64,000 nt of DNA from an uncultured Candidatus Saccharibacteria bacterium (GCA_964459145.1 CAYWKC010000001.1:40200-104199); one strand, 5' to 3'. Positions 4,949-54,392 are shown, numbered from the stretch's first letter. Notes: generated from the letters alone by a model not told the origin. Numbers and translations: made by a program.

Positions 4949-4956
4949 AATGTGTT

Positions 4957-5470
4957 CTTTTATATCTATAAGCCGGATTCTGTTTACCCGACCATCGTAA
5001 AATGGTTTAGGGTTTGATAGCCATTTATCTAGGAAGATTGTTACCAATCTTCTCAAGCGGTACTTCCGGCACCACTTTTTTGAGAAGTTAAACTTCTCAA
5101 AAAAGTGGTGCCGGACACGACCTTGCACTTAGGTAAGGATTTAGCCGTTTCACCCCCTCACCCAGAACAGTGCCAACAAATTAAAATTTGTCAAAAATTA
5201 ACTAAATTTTAATTTACCATTAGGGACTGTTTTTGTGCTATTTTATGTTTGCAAAGCAAACAGCACTGTTCTGGGTGAGGGACTACACCCCCGAAAGGAT
5301 GCCTAAAATTCTTTCGAATTTTAGCGTCTCTGCTCGCACCTCTACAACCACAAAGTTGACGACGGGCGTTACCCGCTACCTTGCTCCGAGCACCAAAATA
5401 GTGCTGGAAGTGTCCGGACTTTCCTCCAAGCCTTATAAAAATAAGGCCCAGTAACTATCCGATATAAAAG
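4957..5470 (-). ncRNA. rnpB: RNase P RNA (bacterial type A) with large insertions
   Basis: Minus strand shows GGAGGAAAGTCCGGAC (P4 5' strand), GGTAACGCCCG (P10/11), ACAGAATCCGGCTTAT (P4 3' strand) and a P1 pairing CTTTTATATC/GATATAAAAG. A TAGTATAAT -10 box lies just upstream on the minus strand. Confidence 0.8.
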
Positions 5471-14551: not shown

Positions 14552-14572
14552 CCTGCCTGGCCGGCAGGCAGG
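14552..14572. repeat. 21-bp GC-rich palindrome flanked by 9-bp direct repeats
   Basis: CCTGCCTGGCCGGCAGGCAGG flanked on both sides by TCTATAAAG. Related copies at 20418-20438 and possibly 53883-53906. Confidence 0.5.
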
Positions 14573-19778: not shown

Positions 19779-21223
19779 AATTATTCAATACTTTAGGTAG
19801 AAAAAAACAAGAATTTAAACCACTAAAAGATGGACAAGTTTCTTTTTATTATTGTGGTCCGACTGTTTATTCTCAACAACATATTGGAAATTTAAGGGGG
19901 GCGGTCTGCGCTGATAGTATTCGTCGTTCTTTAGAATATTTGGGTTATTCAGTTAATTTTGTTTCTAATTATACTGATGTGGGACATTTAACTTCGGATG
20001 AAGATGAGGGTGAAGATAAAATTGAACAAGGAGCTAAAAAAGAAGGTCTCTCCCCTGCTGATATTACTAACAAATATATTAAAATTTATGAAAAAGACAC
20101 CGAAAAATTGAATATTCTTCCTCCCACTACTCGTTGTCGAGCCACTGACTATATCAAACCAATGGAAGAAATGGTGGCAACTCTTTTAAAAAAAGGTTTT
20201 GCTTATCAAACTGAATTAGCTATTTATTTTGATGTTTCTAAAGCAAATAATTATACTCAACTATCAGGACAAAATTTAGAAGATTTAAAAACGGGAGCGG
20301 GAACGGGCGATGTAGTTGACCCACAGAAAAAAAATCAAAATGATTTTGTTCTTTGGTTTTTCAAAACAGGCGTTCATGCTAAGGCCTTGCAGACATGGGA
20401 GTCCCCGTGGGGTGAAGCCTGCCTGCCGGCAAGGCAGGGTTTTCCAGGGTGGCATATTGAATGTTCGGTTATGGCAAAGAAACATCTGGGAGAAACCCTT
20501 GATATTCACATGGGAGGAATTGAACATATCCCTATTCATCACACTAACGAAATAGCTCAAAGTGAGTCAGCGAATGGAGTAAAATATGTTAATTATTGGT
20601 TGCATAATGAACATTTGGGAATTGATAATACCAAAATGAGCAAGTCGTTAGGTAATGTTGTTTATGTAAATAACATTGAAGAAAAAGGTTTCCACCCTTT
20701 AGCTTTAAGATTTTTCTTCTTGCAAGCTCATTACCGTTCTAAACAAAATTTTACTTGGAAGGCTATGGAAGCAGCTAAAAATGGATTAACTCATCTTGAT
20801 AACCAAAGGGCTGATTTAGGTGATGAAGTAGGAAAAATTTCAAAAGAATTTAAACAAAAATTTATAGAAAAAATTAGTGATGATTTTAATTTACCACAAG
20901 CCTTGGCTATTGTTTCAGAGGTTCTTAAATCTGACTTATCAAAAGCAGACAAACTAGCGACTATTTTGGATTTTGATAAAGTTTTGGGGTTAAATTTAAA
21001 ACAAAAAAGGTTTAATTTGTTCACAAAAACAACAAAGTTTATTACAAAAGGATATGATGTAGAAATGACCCTTAACAATAAAATTTCTAATTTGTTAAAA
21101 GAAAGAGATGCTGCTCGGAAAAATAAAGATTGGGCTGAGTCTGATAGGATTAGAGATGAAATAGAATCTCAAGGTTATACTGTTAAAGACACTCCAGACG
21201 GAACTCAAATCTTTAATCCTTGA
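19769..21223 (+). CDS. cysS: cysteinyl-tRNA synthetase
   Basis: YYCGPTVYSQQHIGNLRGA (HIGH) and KMSKSLGN. Carries a GC-rich in-frame insertion between SPWG and PGWHIEC. Confidence 0.9.
   Translation: MVLKLFNTLGRKKQEFKPLKDGQVSFYYCGPTVYSQQHIGNLRGAVCADSIRRSLEYLGYSVNFVSNYTDVGHLTSDEDEGEDKIEQGAKKEGLSPADITNKYIKIYEKDTEKLNILPPTTRCRATDYIKPMEEMVATLLKKGFAYQTELAIYFDVSKANNYTQLSGQNLEDLKTGAGTGDVVDPQKKNQNDFVLWFFKTGVHAKALQTWESPWGEACLPARQGFPGWHIECSVMAKKHLGETLDIHMGGIEHIPIHHTNEIAQSESANGVKYVNYWLHNEHLGIDNTKMSKSLGNVVYVNNIEEKGFHPLALRFFFLQAHYRSKQNFTWKAMEAAKNGLTHLDNQRADLGDEVGKISKEFKQKFIEKISDDFNLPQALAIVSEVLKSDLSKADKLATILDFDKVLGLNLKQKRFNLFTKTTKFITKGYDVEMTLNNKISNLLKERDAARKNKDWAESDRIRDEIESQGYTVKDTPDGTQIFNP
20418..20438. 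repeat. GC-rich palindrome embedded in-frame in cysS
   Basis: CCTGCCTGCCGGCAAGGCAGG encodes ACLPARQ between the conserved SPWG and PGWHIEC motifs. Near-identical to the intergenic palindrome at 14552-14572. Confidence 0.55.
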
Positions 21224-29578: not shown

Positions 29579-29784
29579 GGTGCGCCGGGCAGGATTCGGT
29601 CACTCTCGTGGATATTTTTGTTCGCTTCGCTCCAAAAATATCTCACTTCATTGACCTCCACTCACTCGTATTTTTTCTTCACTGCGTTACGAAAAAATAT
29701 ACTCGTTCGGTTCGAATCCTGACTGTACGAAGTACAGTAAGAAAAAAAGCCTATCCAAACTGGATAGACCTTTTTCTCTTAGGG
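29579..29784 (-). repeat. tRNA-linked element downstream of tRNA-Tyr, ending in a tRNA 3'-end copy
   Basis: Exact 20-nt copy of the tRNA-Tyr 3' end (29580-29599 matches 29783-29802). Contains a terminator hairpin (29742-29776), an inverted T-arm copy CAGGATTCGAACC, and a GAGCGAAGCGAA box. Confidence 0.6.
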
Positions 29785-29867
29785 TGCGCCGGGCAGGATT
29801 CGAACCTGCGTAGCCGTAAGGCGCGAGTTTTACAGACTCGTGTAATTGACCGCTCTACCACCGACGC
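29785..29867 (-). tRNA. tRNA-Tyr (GUA), long variable arm
   Basis: Cloverleaf: acceptor GCGTCGG/CCGGCGC, anticodon loop CTGTAAA, T-arm GCAGGTTCGAATCCTGC. Confidence 0.85.
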
Positions 29868-37244: not shown

Positions 37245-37316
37245 GGCCTGGTGGCGAAGTAGAAACGCTTCGGTCTGCAAAACCGACATGCGCGGGTGCG
37301 ATTCCCGCCCAGGCCT
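37245..37316 (+). tRNA. tRNA-Cys (GCA)
   Basis: Acceptor GGCCTGG/CCAGGCC, anticodon loop CTGCAAA, T-arm GCGGGTGCGATTCCCGC. Confidence 0.85.
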
Positions 37317-37511
37317 CAAGTAAAATAATTAGGAAATTCTTTTCTTCATTATTTTACTTTGGAGGTTCTGGTAGGAATCGCACGGTGGTAGGAAAAAGTC
37401 CCGTGGACTTTTTCCGAGTCGCGACCAGCAGTACTTTAGTTTTTCAAGTTTGAGTTTACGAAAACTAAGAAAAACTTTAGTAACTGTGGATCGATTCCCG
37501 CCCAGGCCTCA
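37317..37511 (+). repeat. tRNA-linked element after tRNA-Cys, ending in a 20-nt copy of the tRNA-Cys 3' end
   Basis: 37492-37511 (CGATTCCCGCCCAGGCCTCA) matches the tRNA 3' end. Hairpin GGAAAAAGTCC-cgt-GGACTTTTTCC at 37391-37415. Inverted T-arm copy GGAATCGCAC at 37374-37383. Confidence 0.6.
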
Positions 37512-38739: not shown

Positions 38740-38811
38740 GGGTCTATAGTTTAGTTGGTAAAACAGCGGTCTCCAAAACCGCCATCCGAGGTTCGAGTCC
38801 TCGTGGACCCG
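38740..38811 (+). tRNA. tRNA-Trp (CCA)
   Basis: Acceptor GGGTCTA/TGGACCC, anticodon loop CTCCAAA, T-arm CGAGGTTCGAGTCCTCG. Confidence 0.85.
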
Positions 38812-38999
38812 CAATAATAAAAATCATTAAATTTTATATTGGGTGATTTTTGTTATTTATGATTTTGACAGGGCTCGAACGGTAATAGGAAAAGTGCTAA
38901 ACGCACTTTTCCGAGCCACGGCCAGCAGTACTTAGCAGATTTTGAGCGAAGCGAAAAAAGATGTTTAGTAATTGTGGGTCGAATTCTCGTGGACCCGCA
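38812..38999 (+). repeat. tRNA-linked element after tRNA-Trp, ending in a 14-nt copy of the tRNA-Trp 3' end
   Basis: 38986-38999 CTCGTGGACCCGCA matches the tRNA 3' end. Hairpin GGAAAAGTGC-taaac-GCACTTTTCC at 38888-38912. GAGCGAAGCGAA box. Terminal GTGGGTCGAATTC T-arm-like segment. Confidence 0.6.
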
Positions 39000-46163: not shown

Positions 46164-46364
46164 CAATTTTGTTGCCAGACTAGGATTCGTCCTGACGGTC
46201 TCTAAATAAAATTCTTCGCTAACCACTTGAATTTTATTAAGAGCCACGGGACACGGCTCGTTGTTGCTCCCCACGGTCGCAACATACTCCGTTGTTCGAA
46301 TCCTATCCAAAATGTGCGTAGGCACATTTCTTCTGGCAATAAAATTTCGTCGCTCTCAATTTTG
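46164..46364 (-). repeat. tRNA-linked element downstream of tRNA-Gln, ending in a 26-nt copy of the tRNA-Gln 3' end plus flank
   Basis: 46164-46189 matches 46357-46382. Hairpin AAAATGTGC-gtag-GCACATTT at 46309-46329. Inverted T-arm copy TAGGATTCGAAC. GAGAGCGACGAA and TAGCGAAGAA boxes. Confidence 0.6.
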
Positions 46365-46436
46365 TTGCCAGACTAGGATTCGAACCTAGATAACCAGCTC
46401 CAAAAGCTGATGTCCTACCATTAGACGATCTGGCAA
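46365..46436 (-). tRNA. tRNA-Gln (UUG)
   Basis: Acceptor TGCCAGA/TCTGGCA, anticodon loop TTTTGGA, T-arm CTAGGTTCGAATCCTAG. Confidence 0.8.
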
Positions 46437-50387: not shown

Positions 50388-53300
50388 ATGACTATGTCTG
50401 AATTTTCTCACCTACACACCCACAGCCACTATAGCCTATTAAATGCTTTACCTAGAATTAAGGAGTTGGTAGCTCGTGCTAAAGAAAATACGATGCCTGC
50501 TTTAGCCTTAACTGATAATGGAAATATGTATGGCACCATTGAGTTTTACCAAGAATGTTTAAAACAAGATATTAAACCAATTTTGGGTGTAGATTTTTAT
50601 GTCGCTCTTAAAACCCGTCATGATAGACGGTCAGGAATTGATAATCGCAACAATCGTTTAGTCCTCTTGGCTAAAAACGAACAGGGTTATAAAAATTTAA
50701 TCAAATTAGTCAGTCAATCATTTTTAGAGGGATTTTATTACAGACCCAGAATTGATAAAGAACTCATTGAGCAATACAAAGAAGGATTAATCTGTATTAT
50801 GCCCCAGTTTAGTGGAGAAATCTCCAAAGCTCTTCAAATTAATGATAAAGAAAAAGCTAAAGAAGTCGCCGAATGGTACAAACAAAATTTCGGAAGTTTT
50901 TTTCTAGAAATAACTCATCACCCTGAAATTGAAGGCCAATTAAAATTAAAAGAACAAATTATAAATTTTGCTAATGACGAAGACCTTCCTTTGGTGGCTT
51001 GCCAAGATGTTTATTATTTAAATCCTGAAGATAAAAAAGCTCGCGATATTTTAATGTCTATCCAAAATTCAATTCCCCACCGCCGGAATGAACAAGAAGA
51101 TTTTTCTTTTATCAATCAAGAAACCGCTAATGAGTATTTCAAAAACACCCCTGAAGCATTAAAAAATATCCAAAAAATAGTAGATAAATGCAATATTAAG
51201 TTAGATATTGATAGTTGGTATTTCCCTGATATTGAAATCCCTGAAGGAGAAACTTACGATTCTCAATTAAGAAAAACTACCTACGCTGGAATAAAAGAAC
51301 GGGGTTTAGAAAAAACTAAAGAAATTGAAGACCGCATTGAATATGAATTAGAAATTATCAGAAATAAGGGATATTCTTCTTATTTTTTGATTGTCTCTGA
51401 CTTAATCAAACATGCTCGGAGTGAAGGAATTTTAACTAACACCCGAGGTTCTGCCGCCGGTTCTTTAGTTTCTTACTTAAATTTTATTACTAAAATTAAT
51501 CCGCTGGAATTAAAACTCCCTTTTGAAAGATTTATGAACCCAGAACGCCCTGGTATCCCTGATATTGATGTAGATATTGCTGATAACCGTCGAGATGATG
51601 TCATTGACTATATGAGAAGCAAGTATGGAGAAGAAGCTGTGGCACAAATTGGAACTTTTGGAACTATGGCTGCTCGTGGGTCTGTCCGCGATGTTACCAG
51701 AGCTTTAGGTCACCCTTATGAACTGGGCGATAAGATTGCTAAATTAATTCCTATTGGTTCTCAAGGATTCCCCATGACCATATCAAGAGCTCTTGATATG
51801 GAAGAAGAACTTAGAAAACTCCAAGAAGATAATCCCGATGTTCGGGAAATAATAAAATATGCTCAAAAGATTGAGGGTTGTGCTCGACATATTTCCACTC
51901 ACGCTGCAGGAGTTCTAATTTCTCCCACCCGAATTGATGATTATACCCCTGTTCAACTGGATAAAGATGGGAAAATTATTACTCAATATGATATGTATAC
52001 AGGAGGACAAGACGGCGTAGTTAATTTACCTAAATTTGATATCTTGGGAATTAAAAATTTATCAATTCTTTCTAATGCCATTCAATTAGCCAAAAAATTG
52101 AGGAGGATAGAAGTTGATTTAGATAATATTGATTTAAAAAATAAAAAAACTTATGAAATGTTAGCTCGCGGAGAAACTTTGGGAACTTTTCAATTAAATG
52201 GACAAGGGATGACCCAATACTTAAAAGAACTAAAACCAAAATCAATTTGGGATATTATGGCGATGGTAGCTCTTTATCGTCCAGGACCAATGGCCTTTAT
52301 CCCAGATTATATTAAAAGAAAAGAAAATCCTCGTTTAGTCACTTATCTTCATCCTGAGCTAAAAAATATTTTGGAACCAACTTATGGAATTATCATTTAC
52401 CAAGATGATGTTATGCTTATCGCTGTAAACTTGGCTGGCTATACATGGGCAGAAGCTGATAAATTTAGGAAAGCCATGGGGAAAAAAATTCCAGAAATGA
52501 TGCAAGAACAAAAAGACAAGTTTTTTAAGGGATGTTCAGAACATGGGATAGAACAAAAAATCATACAAAAACTGTGGGAGACCATAGAGACCTTTGCCGC
52601 TTATGGTTTTAACAAAGCTCATTCAGCTTCTTATGGACGAGTAGCTTATGAGACCTCTTATATGAAAGCTAACTTCCCTATTGAATATATGACCGCTTTG
52701 TTAATGGCCGACTCTGGCGACACAGAAAAAATAGCTGAAATTATTACTGAATGTAAAAGATTAGACATTGAAGTGCTCCCACCCGATATCAATGAATCTT
52801 TCACAGATTTTACAATAGTTCTTGATAAAAAGACCAAAAAAGAAGCTATTCGTTTTGGTTTACAAACTATTAAAAATTTTGGAGAAGGAATCGCCAATTC
52901 TATAATTTCTGAAAGAAAGAAAAACGGACCTTTTAAATCTTTAATTGATTTTTTAGAACGAGTTCAAGATAGAAATTTAAATAAAAAATCCTTAGAAGCT
53001 CTAACTATGTGTGGGGCCATGGATAAGTTAGGCGAAAGAAAACAAATTGTAGAAAATATGCCTGATTTATTAAAATACAATAAAGATTTTGGATTAAAAC
53101 CAAAAGAACAAGATTCTTTATTTGGGAATAATTTTCAGACTCCTCAAATCACTTTGAGAAAAGTAACCCCTGCTACTACTGAAGAAAAACTTGTTTGGGA
53201 AAAAGAACTTTTGGGTTTATATATCTCTGGTCACCCCTTGGACAAATTTAGCCAACAATTATTAAAAAGCAAAACAAATTTAAGTAGGATTAAAAAAAGA

Positions 53301-53558
53301 GCATCAGAAGGAGTCACCACTGTTGTGGCTGGTTTAATTGAGGATTGTAGACCAATTTTAACCAGAAAGGGAGATAAAATGGTCTTCCTCAAATTATCAG
53401 ATTTTAGTGATAGCATAGAGGTAGTCGTCTTTCCTAAAATTTATTCAGACTTTGTTGAATTATTACAAAATGAAAAATGTGTTTTAATTAAAGGTAGAAT
53501 TTCAAAAAGAAATGAAGACACTTCTCTTATTGCCGAAAGCATCCGAGAATTGAAATAA
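50388..53558 (+). CDS. dnaE: DNA polymerase III alpha subunit
   Basis: N-terminal PHP domain (HLHTHSHYSLL), polymerase core and OB fold. Confidence 0.9.
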   Translation: MTMSEFSHLHTHSHYSLLNALPRIKELVARAKENTMPALALTDNGNMYGTIEFYQECLKQDIKPILGVDFYVALKTRHDRRSGIDNRNNRLVLLAKNEQGYKNLIKLVSQSFLEGFYYRPRIDKELIEQYKEGLICIMPQFSGEISKALQINDKEKAKEVAEWYKQNFGSFFLEITHHPEIEGQLKLKEQIINFANDEDLPLVACQDVYYLNPEDKKARDILMSIQNSIPHRRNEQEDFSFINQETANEYFKNTPEALKNIQKIVDKCNIKLDIDSWYFPDIEIPEGETYDSQLRKTTYAGIKERGLEKTKEIEDRIEYELEIIRNKGYSSYFLIVSDLIKHARSEGILTNTRGSAAGSLVSYLNFITKINPLELKLPFERFMNPERPGIPDIDVDIADNRRDDVIDYMRSKYGEEAVAQIGTFGTMAARGSVRDVTRALGHPYELGDKIAKLIPIGSQGFPMTISRALDMEEELRKLQEDNPDVREIIKYAQKIEGCARHISTHAAGVLISPTRIDDYTPVQLDKDGKIITQYDMYTGGQDGVVNLPKFDILGIKNLSILSNAIQLAKKLRRIEVDLDNIDLKNKKTYEMLARGETLGTFQLNGQGMTQYLKELKPKSIWDIMAMVALYRPGPMAFIPDYIKRKENPRLVTYLHPELKNILEPTYGIIIYQDDVMLIAVNLAGYTWAEADKFRKAMGKKIPEMMQEQKDKFFKGCSEHGIEQKIIQKLWETIETFAAYGFNKAHSASYGRVAYETSYMKANFPIEYMTALLMADSGDTEKIAEIITECKRLDIEVLPPDINESFTDFTIVLDKKTKKEAIRFGLQTIKNFGEGIANSIISERKKNGPFKSLIDFLERVQDRNLNKKSLEALTMCGAMDKLGERKQIVENMPDLLKYNKDFGLKPKEQDSLFGNNFQTPQITLRKVTPATTEEKLVWEKELLGLYISGHPLDKFSQQLLKSKTNLSRIKKRASEGVTTVVAGLIEDCRPILTRKGDKMVFLKLSDFSDSIEVVVFPKIYSDFVELLQNEKCVLIKGRISKRNEDTSLIAESIRELK

Positions 53559-53563
53559 ATCAA

Positions 53564-53592
53564 AATTTATGGCTATGCGATAGCCGTAAATT
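53564..53592. repeat. 29-bp REP-like palindrome after dnaE (one mismatch)
   Basis: AATTTATGGCTATGCGATAGCCGTAAATT. Confidence 0.75.
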
Positions 53593-53599
53593 TTGATTG

Positions 53600-53632
53600 A
53601 ACCCCCAAGAATCAGGGCCGGTTGGGGGGGGT
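53600..53632. terminator. bidirectional terminator (dnaE and tRNA-Glu)
   Basis: AACCCCCAAGAATCAGGGCCGGTTGGGGGGGTT with flanking T and A runs. Confidence 0.55.
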
Positions 53633-53657
53633 TAGGGTGTTTTTAGTACCAAAAGAG

Positions 53658-53729
53658 TAGCTCTACCGGGAATTGAACCCGGATTTCCGCCTTGAGAAGG
53701 CGATGTCCTAACCGTTAGACGATAGAGCC
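53658..53729 (-). tRNA. tRNA-Glu (CUC)
   Basis: Acceptor GGCTCTA/TAGAGCT, D-arm TCGTCTAACGGTTAGGAC, anticodon loop TTCTCAA, T-arm CCGGGTTCAATTCCCGG. Confidence 0.8.
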
Positions 53730-53951
53730 AAATATTATTTAAAAATTAAACTTGTTACTATATTAACATTTTTCTTAGAACATCGCCTTCTATGATGCTC
53801 TCTCTATTTTCTATCTCACTATCGTTCAATAAAGAAAATTTTTTCTTTCAGAAAAACCGGATGAAAAGCCAAGTAGCCTGTCTGCCGACAGAGGCAGGTT
53901 GGCTTTTCATTCCAATACCCATTAGACGATAGAGCCAAATACTCCTATATG
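53730..53951 (+). repeat. tRNA-Glu 5'-side element ending in a 20-nt copy of the tRNA 5' end plus flank
   Basis: 53932-53951 TTAGACGATAGAGCCAAATA matches 53715-53734. Hairpin GAAAAGCCAA...TTGGCTTTTC at 53873-53918 encloses a GC palindrome related to that at 14552. Confidence 0.45.
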
Positions 53952-54143
53952 TTACTGTTTTTCTACTAAAAATCAAAGTTATTTACATGAACCCCCCCCC
54001 AATCACCCCCAATCACCCCAAAACCGCCCTACTTCTTAGGGGTTTAACCTTATTTATGAAGTATCTGTGAAGGTTATCCGCAAAGGTTCAACCTCCGCGA
54101 ACCAAAAAAACAACTCGGCAATTAAAAATATGTCATTTCTATT

Positions 54144-54392
54144 TTATAAATCATTTAAAGCTGTTAATTCAGCATTATTATATTCTTCTTCCGTAATCTC
54201 TTCGCCACTCGTTAAAACTTCAAACACAACTTTATTACCATACGGAACTTCAGATTCTCCCTGAGTAGTTTTTATAAACCCGACATAAGGAGCGTCAACT
54301 CCTGTTGTTGGAACAGTCCGAATAAACTCCCCCAAACCTTTGGCAAACACCTTCTCTCTAAACGCCTTCATTGTTAAATGATTTTCTGACAT
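54144..54392 (-). CDS. hypothetical protein, last gene of the restriction-modification operon
   Basis: 82-aa ORF co-oriented with and downstream of the nuclease gene. Confidence 0.35.
   Translation of the reverse strand: MSENHLTMKAFREKVFAKGLGEFIRTVPTTGVDAPYVGFIKTTQGESEVPYGNKVVFEVLTSGEEITEEEYNNAELTALNDL

Follow-up and report, generated by a model that had tools for sequence, protein, structure and literature searches.

Why does the 5' end of a tRNA gene recur about 200 bp upstream of the intact gene, and what is the hairpin-rich DNA that lies between the two copies? The question is raised by the tRNA-Glu locus of the 64-kb stretch of DNA analysed here (the window; G+C content 32.8%), in which a 20-mer, TTAGACGATAGAGCCAAATA, has two exact occurrences, at 53715-53734 and 53922-53941. 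An earlier note on this DNA had pointed to the repeat and it is real, although its upstream copy lies at 53922-53941 and not at 53932-53951, as first placed (off by 10). The 20-mer does consist of tRNA-Glu positions 1-15 plus five flanking bases, the gene having been mapped to 53657-53729 on the minus strand. None of 100 shuffles gave two matches to it, and no third copy was found in the 64-kb window with up to three mismatches allowed. Extended to 26 nt, the repeat retains 92% identity, its copies being spaced 207 apart, and no ORF was found in the 187 bp separating the two 20-mers.

The noted combination of a duplicated tRNA-Glu 5' end and an interval rich in hairpins is thus supported, and the particular hairpin proposed, GAAAAGCCAA/TTGGCTTTTC, was recovered with its arms at 53863-53872 and 53899-53908. 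The parts of the locus are as follows.

53657-53729, minus strand: intact tRNA-Glu gene, anticodon CUC (ARAGORN; Rfam tRNA, 63.6 bits)
53730-53777, minus strand: AT-rich spacer between element and tRNA, the probable site of the tRNA's own promoter
53778-53941, minus strand: whole conserved element, ~160 nt
53778-53798, minus strand: P-d hairpin, from the anticodon arm; 3' strand and tail complementary to the tRNA
53778-53791, minus strand: P-d 3' strand plus tail, AGAAGGCGATGTTC, the reverse complement of tRNA positions 22-35
53801-53806, minus strand: ATAGAG box, the 3' strand of P1, pairing with copied tRNA positions 2-7 (53930-53935)
53807-53838, minus strand: P-c hairpin of the module, with a 5-bp basal stem; helix 4
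53841-53855, minus strand: P-b hairpin of the module, TTTTTCT GAA AGAAAAA, with double changes
53856-53916, minus strand: P-a hairpin of the module, 17 pairs, including the GAAAAGCCAA/TTGGCTTTTC stem
53877-53898, no strand: GC-rich palindrome CCTGTCTGCCGACAGAGGCAGG, a secondary 22-nt insertion in the P-a loop
53916-53941, minus strand: 5' end of the element, a copy of tRNA-Glu 1-21 (two mismatches) plus five flanking bases
53942-53995, minus strand: conserved upstream region with a promoter-like TTGATT-N16-TAACAT, a putative promoter
53596-53660, plus strand: imperfect inverted copy of the upstream region, just 3' of the tRNA

A remodelled tRNA-Glu copy and its conserved fold

The upstream copy is wider than the 20 nt originally described: it is a rearranged version of about tRNA positions 1-43 with a module inserted into the D-loop. 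The element runs from tRNA 1-21 through a three-hairpin module of ~90-110 nt in the former D-loop to the P1 box and P-d. A covariance model of the element, R1, built from nine copies, gives weak matches (16-30 bits) to tRNA-Glu genes themselves, and in these alignments tRNA-Glu 1-19 corresponds to the start of the element, tRNA 20-47 to ATAGGG...P-d...GAUGU, and all 88 module positions are deleted; this identifies the element as a truncated copy of tRNA-Glu whose D-loop carries a foreign module. This non-coding, remodelled copy lies head-to-tail upstream of the gene. Its acceptor sequence tracks that of the neighboring tRNA across genomes (GGCTCTA, GGCCCTA, GACCTTA), with 0-2 mismatches over 21 positions of the tRNA copy in 17 of 18 loci. 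In the window, the tRNA-plus-element block is flanked by inverted copies at 53596-53660 and 53942-54032.

A second tRNA-derived segment lies at the end of the element nearest the gene, where a 17-nt inverted copy of tRNA positions 19-35 occupies 53775-53791 (94% against 53695-53711). The 3' strand of P-d in tRNA-Glu elements continues as GAUGUCC, and AGAAGGCGATGTCC is the reverse complement of tRNA 22-35; this antisense box agrees with its own tRNA at 13 of 14 positions in the window and at 13-14 of 14 in 11 of 18 loci. It tracks the differing anticodon stems of L081/L082 and L096 but fails to follow the tRNA changes seen in L089, L094, and L098. The 5' strand of P-d equals tRNA 29-34, and the P-d loop is in the sense orientation in L093 and antisense in L095. 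These differing loop orientations, along with the alignment of the tRNA to R1, rule out that the box is purely an antisense guide. We read it as a remodelled anticodon arm, a fold-back arising from truncation of the copy and partly kept in step with the gene; the antisense tail may be a relic of that fold-back and have no working role.

In 16 of 18 loci the antisense box stops 45-55 nt short of the tRNA (48 nt in the window). The intervening sequence cannot be aligned between genomes; most spacers have good -10-like hexamers 9-23 nt before the tRNA start. With this nearly constant spacing and these hexamers, the tRNA probably has its own promoter. Upstream of the element, TTGATT-N16-TAACAT ends ~12 nt before the copied G1, and 53942-53995 can be aligned with the L011 sequence that precedes the first partial tRNA copy there; the motif, which scores below the threshold of the consensus scan, is the likely promoter of the element. 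In several loci the repeat reaches ~20 nt upstream of G1, so that both units would share a -10 region. Terminator-like sites were flagged by the consensus scan on the plus strand only, inside the secondary GC insertion in P-a, and no conserved U-tract was found after P-a across the copies, some of which are U-rich there. P-a was rejected as an intrinsic terminator on these grounds.

R1 recovers all copies at 43-155 bits, on the tRNA strand only. When the 22 distinct copies are aligned to it, 95.0% of 901 cells in five helices are paired, a figure inflated by the fitting of that alignment to R1; double (both-side) changes occur in 22 of 44 pairs, none of 500 shuffles did as well as the observed pairing, and sliding the 3' partners by 1-3 columns as a control gave 38-53% pairing. 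The stem tables and RNAalifold are free of the bias, and the latter, applied to a MAFFT alignment of 19 unique copies, independently recovered P-a, P-b, and P-d, together with compensatory changes and invariant U.G pairs. P-a is 98.9% paired over its 17 pairs, with U.G invariant at one of them (22 of 22 copies) and frequent at two more, and P-b has double changes from UA to CG in all four modelled pairs. P-c emerged when the alignment was anchored on invariant columns; in 17 of 19 copies its 5-bp basal stem has no mismatch, nine different stem sequences occur, and helix 4 as a whole is 96.3% paired with double changes in seven of 11 pairs. Helix 5 (P-d) is 93.8% paired, with double changes in four of six pairs. 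The helices are thus maintained by compensatory change, and the element is a conserved structured one.

P1 (helix 1; 89% paired), in which the box, ATAGGG in its general form, follows P-c directly on the 3' side, is supported in the tRNA-Glu lineage only. It has compensatory pairs – CTCTA/TAGAG in the window, CCTTA/TAAGG in L090, and CCCTA/TAGGG elsewhere – together with a one-position mismatch in several loci, and it has no counterpart in the related tRNA-Leu element described below. A full tRNA-like cloverleaf, with P1 as the acceptor stem and ATAGGGT as a copy of the acceptor 3' strand, was considered and toned down, because the tRNA-Leu element has TAGGAGG in this place and no possible P1.

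P1, P-a, and a 3' hairpin all appear when the window copy is folded at minimum energy (z = -4.2), and the z-scores of the two strands, -4.2 and -4.5, show that both fold well. The helices contain 77 G.U cells versus 14 A.C cells, which indicates that the folding strand is the tRNA-sense strand, most likely as RNA; single-stranded DNA hairpins also tolerate G.T, so the bias does not strictly distinguish RNA from single-stranded DNA.

Relatives, neighboring genes, and elements at other tRNA genes

Judged by the closest relatives of its DnaE, which are Paceibacteria-like metagenome-assembled genomes, the window belongs to the Patescibacteria. Homologues of the element amount to 23 copies (22 distinct) from 19 related Patescibacteria sources, all of them immediately 5' of tRNA-Glu and on the tRNA strand. 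The tRNA-Glu(CUC) gene is located after dnaE in seven close relatives, and in three of them – L004, L007, and L011 – the region 5' of the tRNA matches window positions 53730-53960 with 79% mean column identity, in an alignment that takes in the tRNA-end copy, the hairpins, and the inverted box but not the unconserved AT-rich spacer. DnaE is 76-84% identical in the relatives that carry homologous elements. Scanning metagenome contigs with the junction signature GTCTAAYGGNTATTGGAATNAAAAG yielded 18 loci, and in 17 the match is upstream of a tRNA-Glu (CUC or UUC), L083 being cut before the gene; because the search pattern held tRNA-Glu D-loop bases, this recovery is biased towards tRNA-Glu. The duplication is therefore not private to one genome but is conserved 5' of tRNA-Glu in L004, L007, L011, and 15 metagenome loci. 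The earlier note had allowed that the 20-mer might simply belong to a promoter element shared by related tRNA-Glu loci, and this is largely the case in that both the duplication and the hairpins are kept upstream of tRNA-Glu in relatives, although what is kept far exceeds a promoter element. No match to the signature was found in viral contigs, and there is thus no sign of a phage origin.

The element varies in form. A short version without the module, consisting of tRNA 1-16, a near-complement of tRNA 1-16 (forming a hairpin), and GGACATTGTCC, is present in L002, L003, L007, and L011, and is in tandem in L003. L001 and L006 have a plain tRNA with no element, so the element is dispensable. The copy number of units also varies, with tandem units – two or three per locus – in L090, L093/L097, and L096. 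The module is not confined to tRNA-Glu but occurs inside a truncated tRNA-Leu copy as well: 5' of tRNA-Leu(UAG) in L004 are tRNA-Leu 1-19, three tandem modules, tRNA-Leu 21-35 in the sense orientation, a 39-nt AT-rich spacer, and the intact gene. Each of these modules has P-a, P-b, and P-c and ends in TAGGAGG or TAAAGGG, and the three resemble different module subtypes of other genomes. In L084, a partial tRNA-Gln copy has an acceptor sequence that differs from that of the adjacent gene.

At the gathering threshold, Rfam 15, whose families include tRNA-like RNAs, T-box, tmRNA, group I intron, and YrlA, reports only tRNA and RNase P in the window; permissive scans of 53560-54150 and the L004 tRNA-Leu element gave sub-threshold noise only, and the Cys-to-Trp region likewise yielded no family other than these two. 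No description of the element, which recurs in many uncultivated lineages, was found in Rfam or in the literature searched. Group I introns in Patescibacteria tRNA genes are anticodon-loop introns (PMC13011429). A group I intron was rejected at this locus, where tRNA-Glu is intact and no intron model matches.

The window also contains four downstream, tRNA-linked elements, to which the earlier note had likened the tRNA-Glu element as a mirror image.

29579-29802: 3' element of tRNA-Tyr
37299-37510: 3' element of tRNA-Cys
38793-38998: 3' element of tRNA-Trp
46171-46382: 3' element of tRNA-Gln

These units are 186-204 bp long, and the far end of each repeats 13-20 nt of the tRNA 3' end. A tRNA-complementary segment, in which the 5' strand of the acceptor is fused to that of the T-stem, lies 56-60 nt after the gene in the Tyr, Cys, and Gln units and is diverged in the Trp unit; it pairs with the far copy to give a fold-back closure, which includes G.U pairs in the Cys unit. 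The bodies of the four are mutually homologous, and that on the window tRNA-Gln is nearly identical to one attached to tRNA-Glu in L086, suggesting that 3' bodies move between tRNA species. Both the 5' and 3' kinds are found around a single tRNA-Glu in L004, L086, and L090. Five of the seven tRNA genes in the window have appendages of one kind or the other.

The tRNA-Glu element resembles the 3' units in its size (186-207 bp for the two kinds together), in the sense copy of a tRNA end at its far end, in a tRNA-complementary segment located 45-62 nt from the gene, in hairpins with an A-rich arm, GC core, and T-rich arm, and in hairpin tips of the form GAGC-loop-GCGA (e.g. GAGCGAAGCGAA). Unlike the 3' fold-backs, it draws its two tRNA-derived segments from different parts of the tRNA. 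When the four 3' elements were combined into an nhmmer profile, this had no match at 53730-53941 on either strand, and R1 had none to the four 3' elements of the window at E up to 10; R1 gave a weak partial match (20.9 bits) to the tRNA-Gln 3' element of L003, via the GAGC-loop-GCGA capped hairpins. The mirror image therefore holds as a common design and shared geometry, with homology not demonstrated by either profile or R1, and the likeness could reflect either common descent or convergence.

The tRNA-Glu locus has dnaE (50388-53558) on one side. Its neighbors on the other are a small ORF, a gene for a PD-(D/E)XK nuclease, and Res and Mod, which encode a type III restriction-modification system. 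In L002, murJ directly follows the tRNA, and the segment from tRNA-Glu to murJ varies between genomes. Res and Mod are absent from the orthologous locus in all close relatives, and the earlier remark that the locus borders a restriction-modification island is correct for this reason. Only two copies of the repeat exist in 64 kb, so the island does not have it as its attachment site. A scan of 50 window ORFs (47 of the 49 that reach 120 aa, plus three below that length) revealed no integrase, transposase, or reverse transcriptase. Neither terminal inverted repeats at the element ends nor a fixed short target duplication was found, and derivation from a MITE or insertion sequence was rejected because there is no terminal inverted repeat and the apparent duplication belongs to a longer, remodelled tRNA copy.

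Explanations for the element

With a confidence somewhat better than even, we interpret the locus as a folded element on a partial tRNA-Glu copy, transcribed as a small RNA that rides on the copy. Transcription would proceed in the tRNA direction from a tRNA-type promoter retained by the partial copy, the transcript would fold as a small RNA ending at P-d, and tRNA-Glu would be driven by its own promoter in the 45-55 nt spacer. Given a promoter on the partial copy and a separate one for the tRNA, the module RNA would thus be carried on a dispensable copy, gaining a strong promoter and a tRNA-like 5' end and leaving the real gene intact. Recombination between the partial copy and the gene would account for persistence and for changes in copy number without an enzyme of its own. 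The genomes of Patescibacteria are very small and a conserved non-coding structure is therefore unlikely to be idle; our guess is that the RNA binds a protein or acts in cis at the tRNA-Glu locus.

The alternatives differ in how much of this they share. In one, the module is a non-autonomous mobile element, as RNA or single-stranded DNA, that targets the tRNA D-loop (and its sister family the T-loop), is moved in trans, and creates or requires a partial tRNA duplication on insertion. The presence of one module type in both Glu and Leu contexts would fit such movement, as would the match of the three L004 tRNA-Leu modules to different subtypes of other genomes, the near-identical 3' body on tRNA-Gln in the window and tRNA-Glu in L086, and the differences in presence, absence, and copy number among relatives; the L084 tRNA-Gln copy, with an acceptor unlike that of the adjacent gene, is what is expected of a displaced remnant, and strand-specific folding is also seen in hairpin-dependent single-strand transposition. 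However, no transposase, integrase, HUH enzyme, or reverse transcriptase was found among the ORFs scanned in the 64 kb, the element lacks terminal inverted repeats and a fixed short target duplication, and viral contigs have no match. The element occurs at orthologous sites in genomes with DnaE identities of 76-84%, and its copies show ordinary divergence along with compensatory changes; vertical descent under selection accounts for this better than recent movement does, and we regard a mobile module as unlikely. We think it quite improbable, too, that the element is a cis-regulatory leader co-transcribed with the tRNA, in which the antisense tail would pair with the nascent tRNA and control its folding, RNase P processing, or decay, with P-d as a competing mimic of the target. 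In most loci the box agrees with its tRNA at 13-14 of 14 positions, and it tracks the L081/L082 and L096 anticodon stems; this and its nearly constant distance from the tRNA are in keeping with such a role; so are the two alternative pairings that follow from the identity of the P-d 5' strand to tRNA 29-34, and the tRNA-complementary segment of the 3' elements. But the box is out of step with the tRNA in L089, L094, and L098, the corresponding tRNA-Leu segment is sense rather than antisense, the P-d loop (sense in L093, antisense in L095) resembles a historical fold-back more than a tuned guide, and the tRNA apparently has a separate promoter in the spacer.

The comparative data contradict two further readings. 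Direct repeats of a tRNA end classically signal integration, and an island such as the restriction-modification genes, which adjoin the locus and are missing in relatives, could have used the tRNA-Glu 5' end and left the 20-mers as attachment-site repeats; the variable segment between tRNA-Glu and murJ would agree with this. As in attachment-site tRNA duplications made by tyrosine integrases, a terminal tRNA repeat here lies beside an intact gene with variable DNA next door. In this case, though, the repeat is at the 5' end, the copies are just 207 bp apart and enclose no gene or cargo, no integrase was found in the 50 window ORFs, and no third repeat lies beyond the island with three mismatches allowed. 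Moreover, the interval is under structural selection, the same repeat and hairpins are conserved and folded in the island-free L004, L007, and L011, and the copy is remodelled to about position 43, all of which leaves an integration scar very improbable. We give as little credence to a chance repeat, or to a duplicated promoter with ordinary terminator hairpins of no specific role. Hairpins with an A-rich arm, GC core, and T-rich arm do resemble bidirectional terminators, plus-strand terminator-like sites are flagged in P-a, and both strands fold well (z of -4.2 and -4.5); against this, the terminator calls depend on the GC insertion, which is secondary, no U-tract is conserved after P-a, no shuffle of 100 reproduced the repeat, and three to five helices keep their order and junction sequences in 22 distinct copies with compensatory changes.

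A structured RNA carried on a partial tRNA copy, which we favor, has likenesses among known systems. BOX elements of Streptococcus pneumoniae are built as boxA-boxB(n)-boxC, and Correia, RUP, and REP elements are likewise modular structured intergenic repeats. The element is similar to these in being small, non-coding, and strongly structured, and it is similar to BOX in that the number of middle modules varies (one in tRNA-Glu, three in the L004 tRNA-Leu element) and whole units are in tandem. Unlike them, it takes its end pieces from the neighboring tRNA and is tied to tRNA genes rather than dispersed, has no terminal inverted repeats, and has one module copy in the window. A tRNA-identical 5' end is a feature in common with tmRNA, plant mitochondrial t-elements, mascRNA, YrlA, and viral tRNA-like structures. 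As in such tRNA-scaffolded RNAs, a foreign structure replaces the tRNA arms, and the acceptor-like P1 is continuous with the 5-bp P-c stem in a manner comparable to the acceptor/T-arm stack. The element differs from these RNAs in having no Rfam match and no 3' acceptor end or CCA context, and in the missing P1 of the tRNA-Leu version.

More tentatively, and as something that we hold to be possible but on the doubtful side, Patescibacteria may have an undescribed class of small structured RNAs on partial tRNA copies, comprising a D-loop 5' family (Glu, Leu) and a T-loop 3' family (Tyr, Cys, Trp, Gln, Glu, Leu). These would use tRNA promoters and ends, possibly with RNase P and RNase Z, and would pass from one tRNA species to another by recombining with the parent gene. 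If this two-family reading is true, the tRNA-Glu element of the window is the founding example of the 5' class. If the element is an RNA, it represents a new class of structured RNA living on a spare piece of a tRNA gene, and if it is mobile, a new way to target tRNA genes that leaves them intact. A partial tRNA copy is often taken for an integration scar, and these elements show that this can mislead.

The GC-rich palindrome

The palindrome seen earlier within the hairpin, CCTGTCTGCCGACAGAGGCAGG at 53877-53898, is of the same family as the one at 14552-14572, as had been proposed, with a CCTGYCTG...CAGRCAGG design common to both. It does not belong to the conserved hairpin but is a secondary insertion that is absent from 20 of the 22 other copies and elsewhere in L087 and L094. 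The P-a loop of every other copy is without it, and the near-identical CCTGCCTGCCGGCAGGCAGG is in the P-c loop of L087 and inside the tRNA copy of L094; palindrome copies were also found in L081. The palindrome at 14552-14572 has TCTATAAAG on either side and is the only site showing a target duplication.

From its distribution, the palindrome behaves as a separate, dispersed insertion of 20-22 nt. Rickettsia palindromic elements and yeast mitochondrial GC clusters are small palindromic insertions able to enter genes. The palindrome is like them in being GC-rich and dispersed in an AT-rich genome, and unlike them in that it is only 20-22 nt long with a target duplication at one site; we know of no enzyme associated with it. 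Also like those insertions, it is found at differing orthologous positions, and once in frame in an essential gene, cysS. This copy, at 20418-20438, encodes seven residues (ACLPARQ) between PWGE and GFPGWH of CysRS, an insert that is absent from the aligned solved CysRS structure.

Elements at the 3′ ends of tRNA genes and their hairpin caps

Four tRNA genes of the window are followed by an element at their 3′ side:

3′ tRNA-linked elements of the window
29579-29802, - strand, 3′ element of tRNA-Tyr
37299-37510, + strand, 3′ element of tRNA-Cys
38793-38998, + strand, 3′ element of tRNA-Trp
46171-46382, - strand, 3′ element of tRNA-Gln

These elements are read as fold-backs. In order, their segments are a terminator-like hairpin, an acceptor 5′ strand fused to a T-stem 5′ strand, two hairpins with caps, and the tRNA 3′ end repeated in sense orientation; the fused strands are the reverse complement of this 3′ end. 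The tRNA-Gln element has a small hairpin between TGCCAGA and TAGGATTCGAAC, and its body is nearly identical to one carried by tRNA-Glu in a metagenome locus (L086).

A recurring cap, GAGC-(3-4 nt)-GCGA and often GAGCGAAGCGAA, closes A/T-armed hairpins both in 3′ elements and in the modules (hairpins P-a, P-b and P-c) of the 5′ elements, and would place two tandem G.A pairs beside two G-C pairs. The terminator-like hairpins 3′ of the tRNAs have AGC-GNNA-GCT tips.

Examples of the GAGC-(3-4 nt)-GCGA cap
window 29630-29650
window 38930-38950
L085 (metagenome locus), hairpin P-c
L081 (metagenome locus), hairpin P-b

Across the window and loci L001-L098 (relatives and metagenomes), 5′ or 3′ elements accompany tRNA-Tyr, -Cys, -Trp, -Gln, -Glu and -Leu(tag), all substrates of class I synthetases, in a small tally skewed by the way in which the loci were retrieved. 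None was present on the Ser, Val, Lys, Gly, Asp or Leu(taa) genes of the same set.

Variants and surroundings of the 5′ element

Short units lacking the module lie upstream of tRNA-Glu in four relatives:

Module-less units upstream of tRNA-Glu
L003:9830-10020, short unit, tandem
L002:10589-10680, short unit
L007:9235-9329, short unit
L011:9270-9364, short unit

Each comprises tRNA positions 1-16 and a near-complement of them (e.g. CAATTAGAATATAGAG), which together form a hairpin, with the palindrome GGACATTGTCC and a spacer rich in A+T making up the rest of the unit. The 5′ element also exists in a tRNA-Leu form in a further relative (L004:225-560, - strand), where it lies upstream of tRNA-Leu(tag) at 142-224 and runs from tRNA-Leu 1-19 through three tandem P-a/P-b/P-c modules of differing subtype to tRNA-Leu 21-35 (sense), a 39-nt spacer and the gene, which bears a 3′ element as well.

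The tRNA-Glu and element block of the window is bracketed by an imperfect inverted repeat of ~65 nt (53596-53660 / 53942-54032) containing a G-run plus TTTTTAGTA..AAAA.AGTA, the right arm of which is the conserved region upstream of the 5′ element. The block is directed towards dnaE in the window and L002, and away from it in L001, L003, L004, L006, L007 and L011; its direction thus differs among the window and these relatives, which implies at least one inversion.

GC-rich palindromes and partial tRNA-Gln copies

A family of GC-rich palindromes (20-22 nt, consensus CCTGCCTGCCGGCAGGCAGG) is dispersed across the AT-rich genomes of the window and three metagenome loci:

GC-rich palindromes
window 14552-14572, with a direct repeat of 9 bp, TCTATAAAG, on either side
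window 20418-20438, in-frame 21-nt insert in cysS
window 53877-53898
L087:2392-2411
L094:1566-1585
L081:6942-6961

The cysS insert adds the residues ACLPARQ between PWGE and GFPGWH of CysRS, and these are missing from the solved CysRS structure aligned to the window product.

Two loci have a partial tRNA-Gln copy at the site held in the window by the tRNA-Gln gene:

Partial 5′ copies of tRNA-Gln (TGCCAGATCGTCTAATGGTAG), each followed by a GC-rich hairpin
L084:5613-5680, - strand
L007:2613-2730, - strand

The L084 copy has an acceptor unlike that of the adjacent gene (TACCGGG), a pattern expected of a displaced remnant, and the L007 copy is interrupted by a GC palindrome (29 nt).

RNase P RNA of the window

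A covariance model for class A RNase P RNA matches window 4953-5470 (- strand) with 105.8 bits, barely above the gathering score of 100 bits. The match spans 518 nt relative to a model of 367 positions, and the window RNase P RNA therefore contains large insertions.
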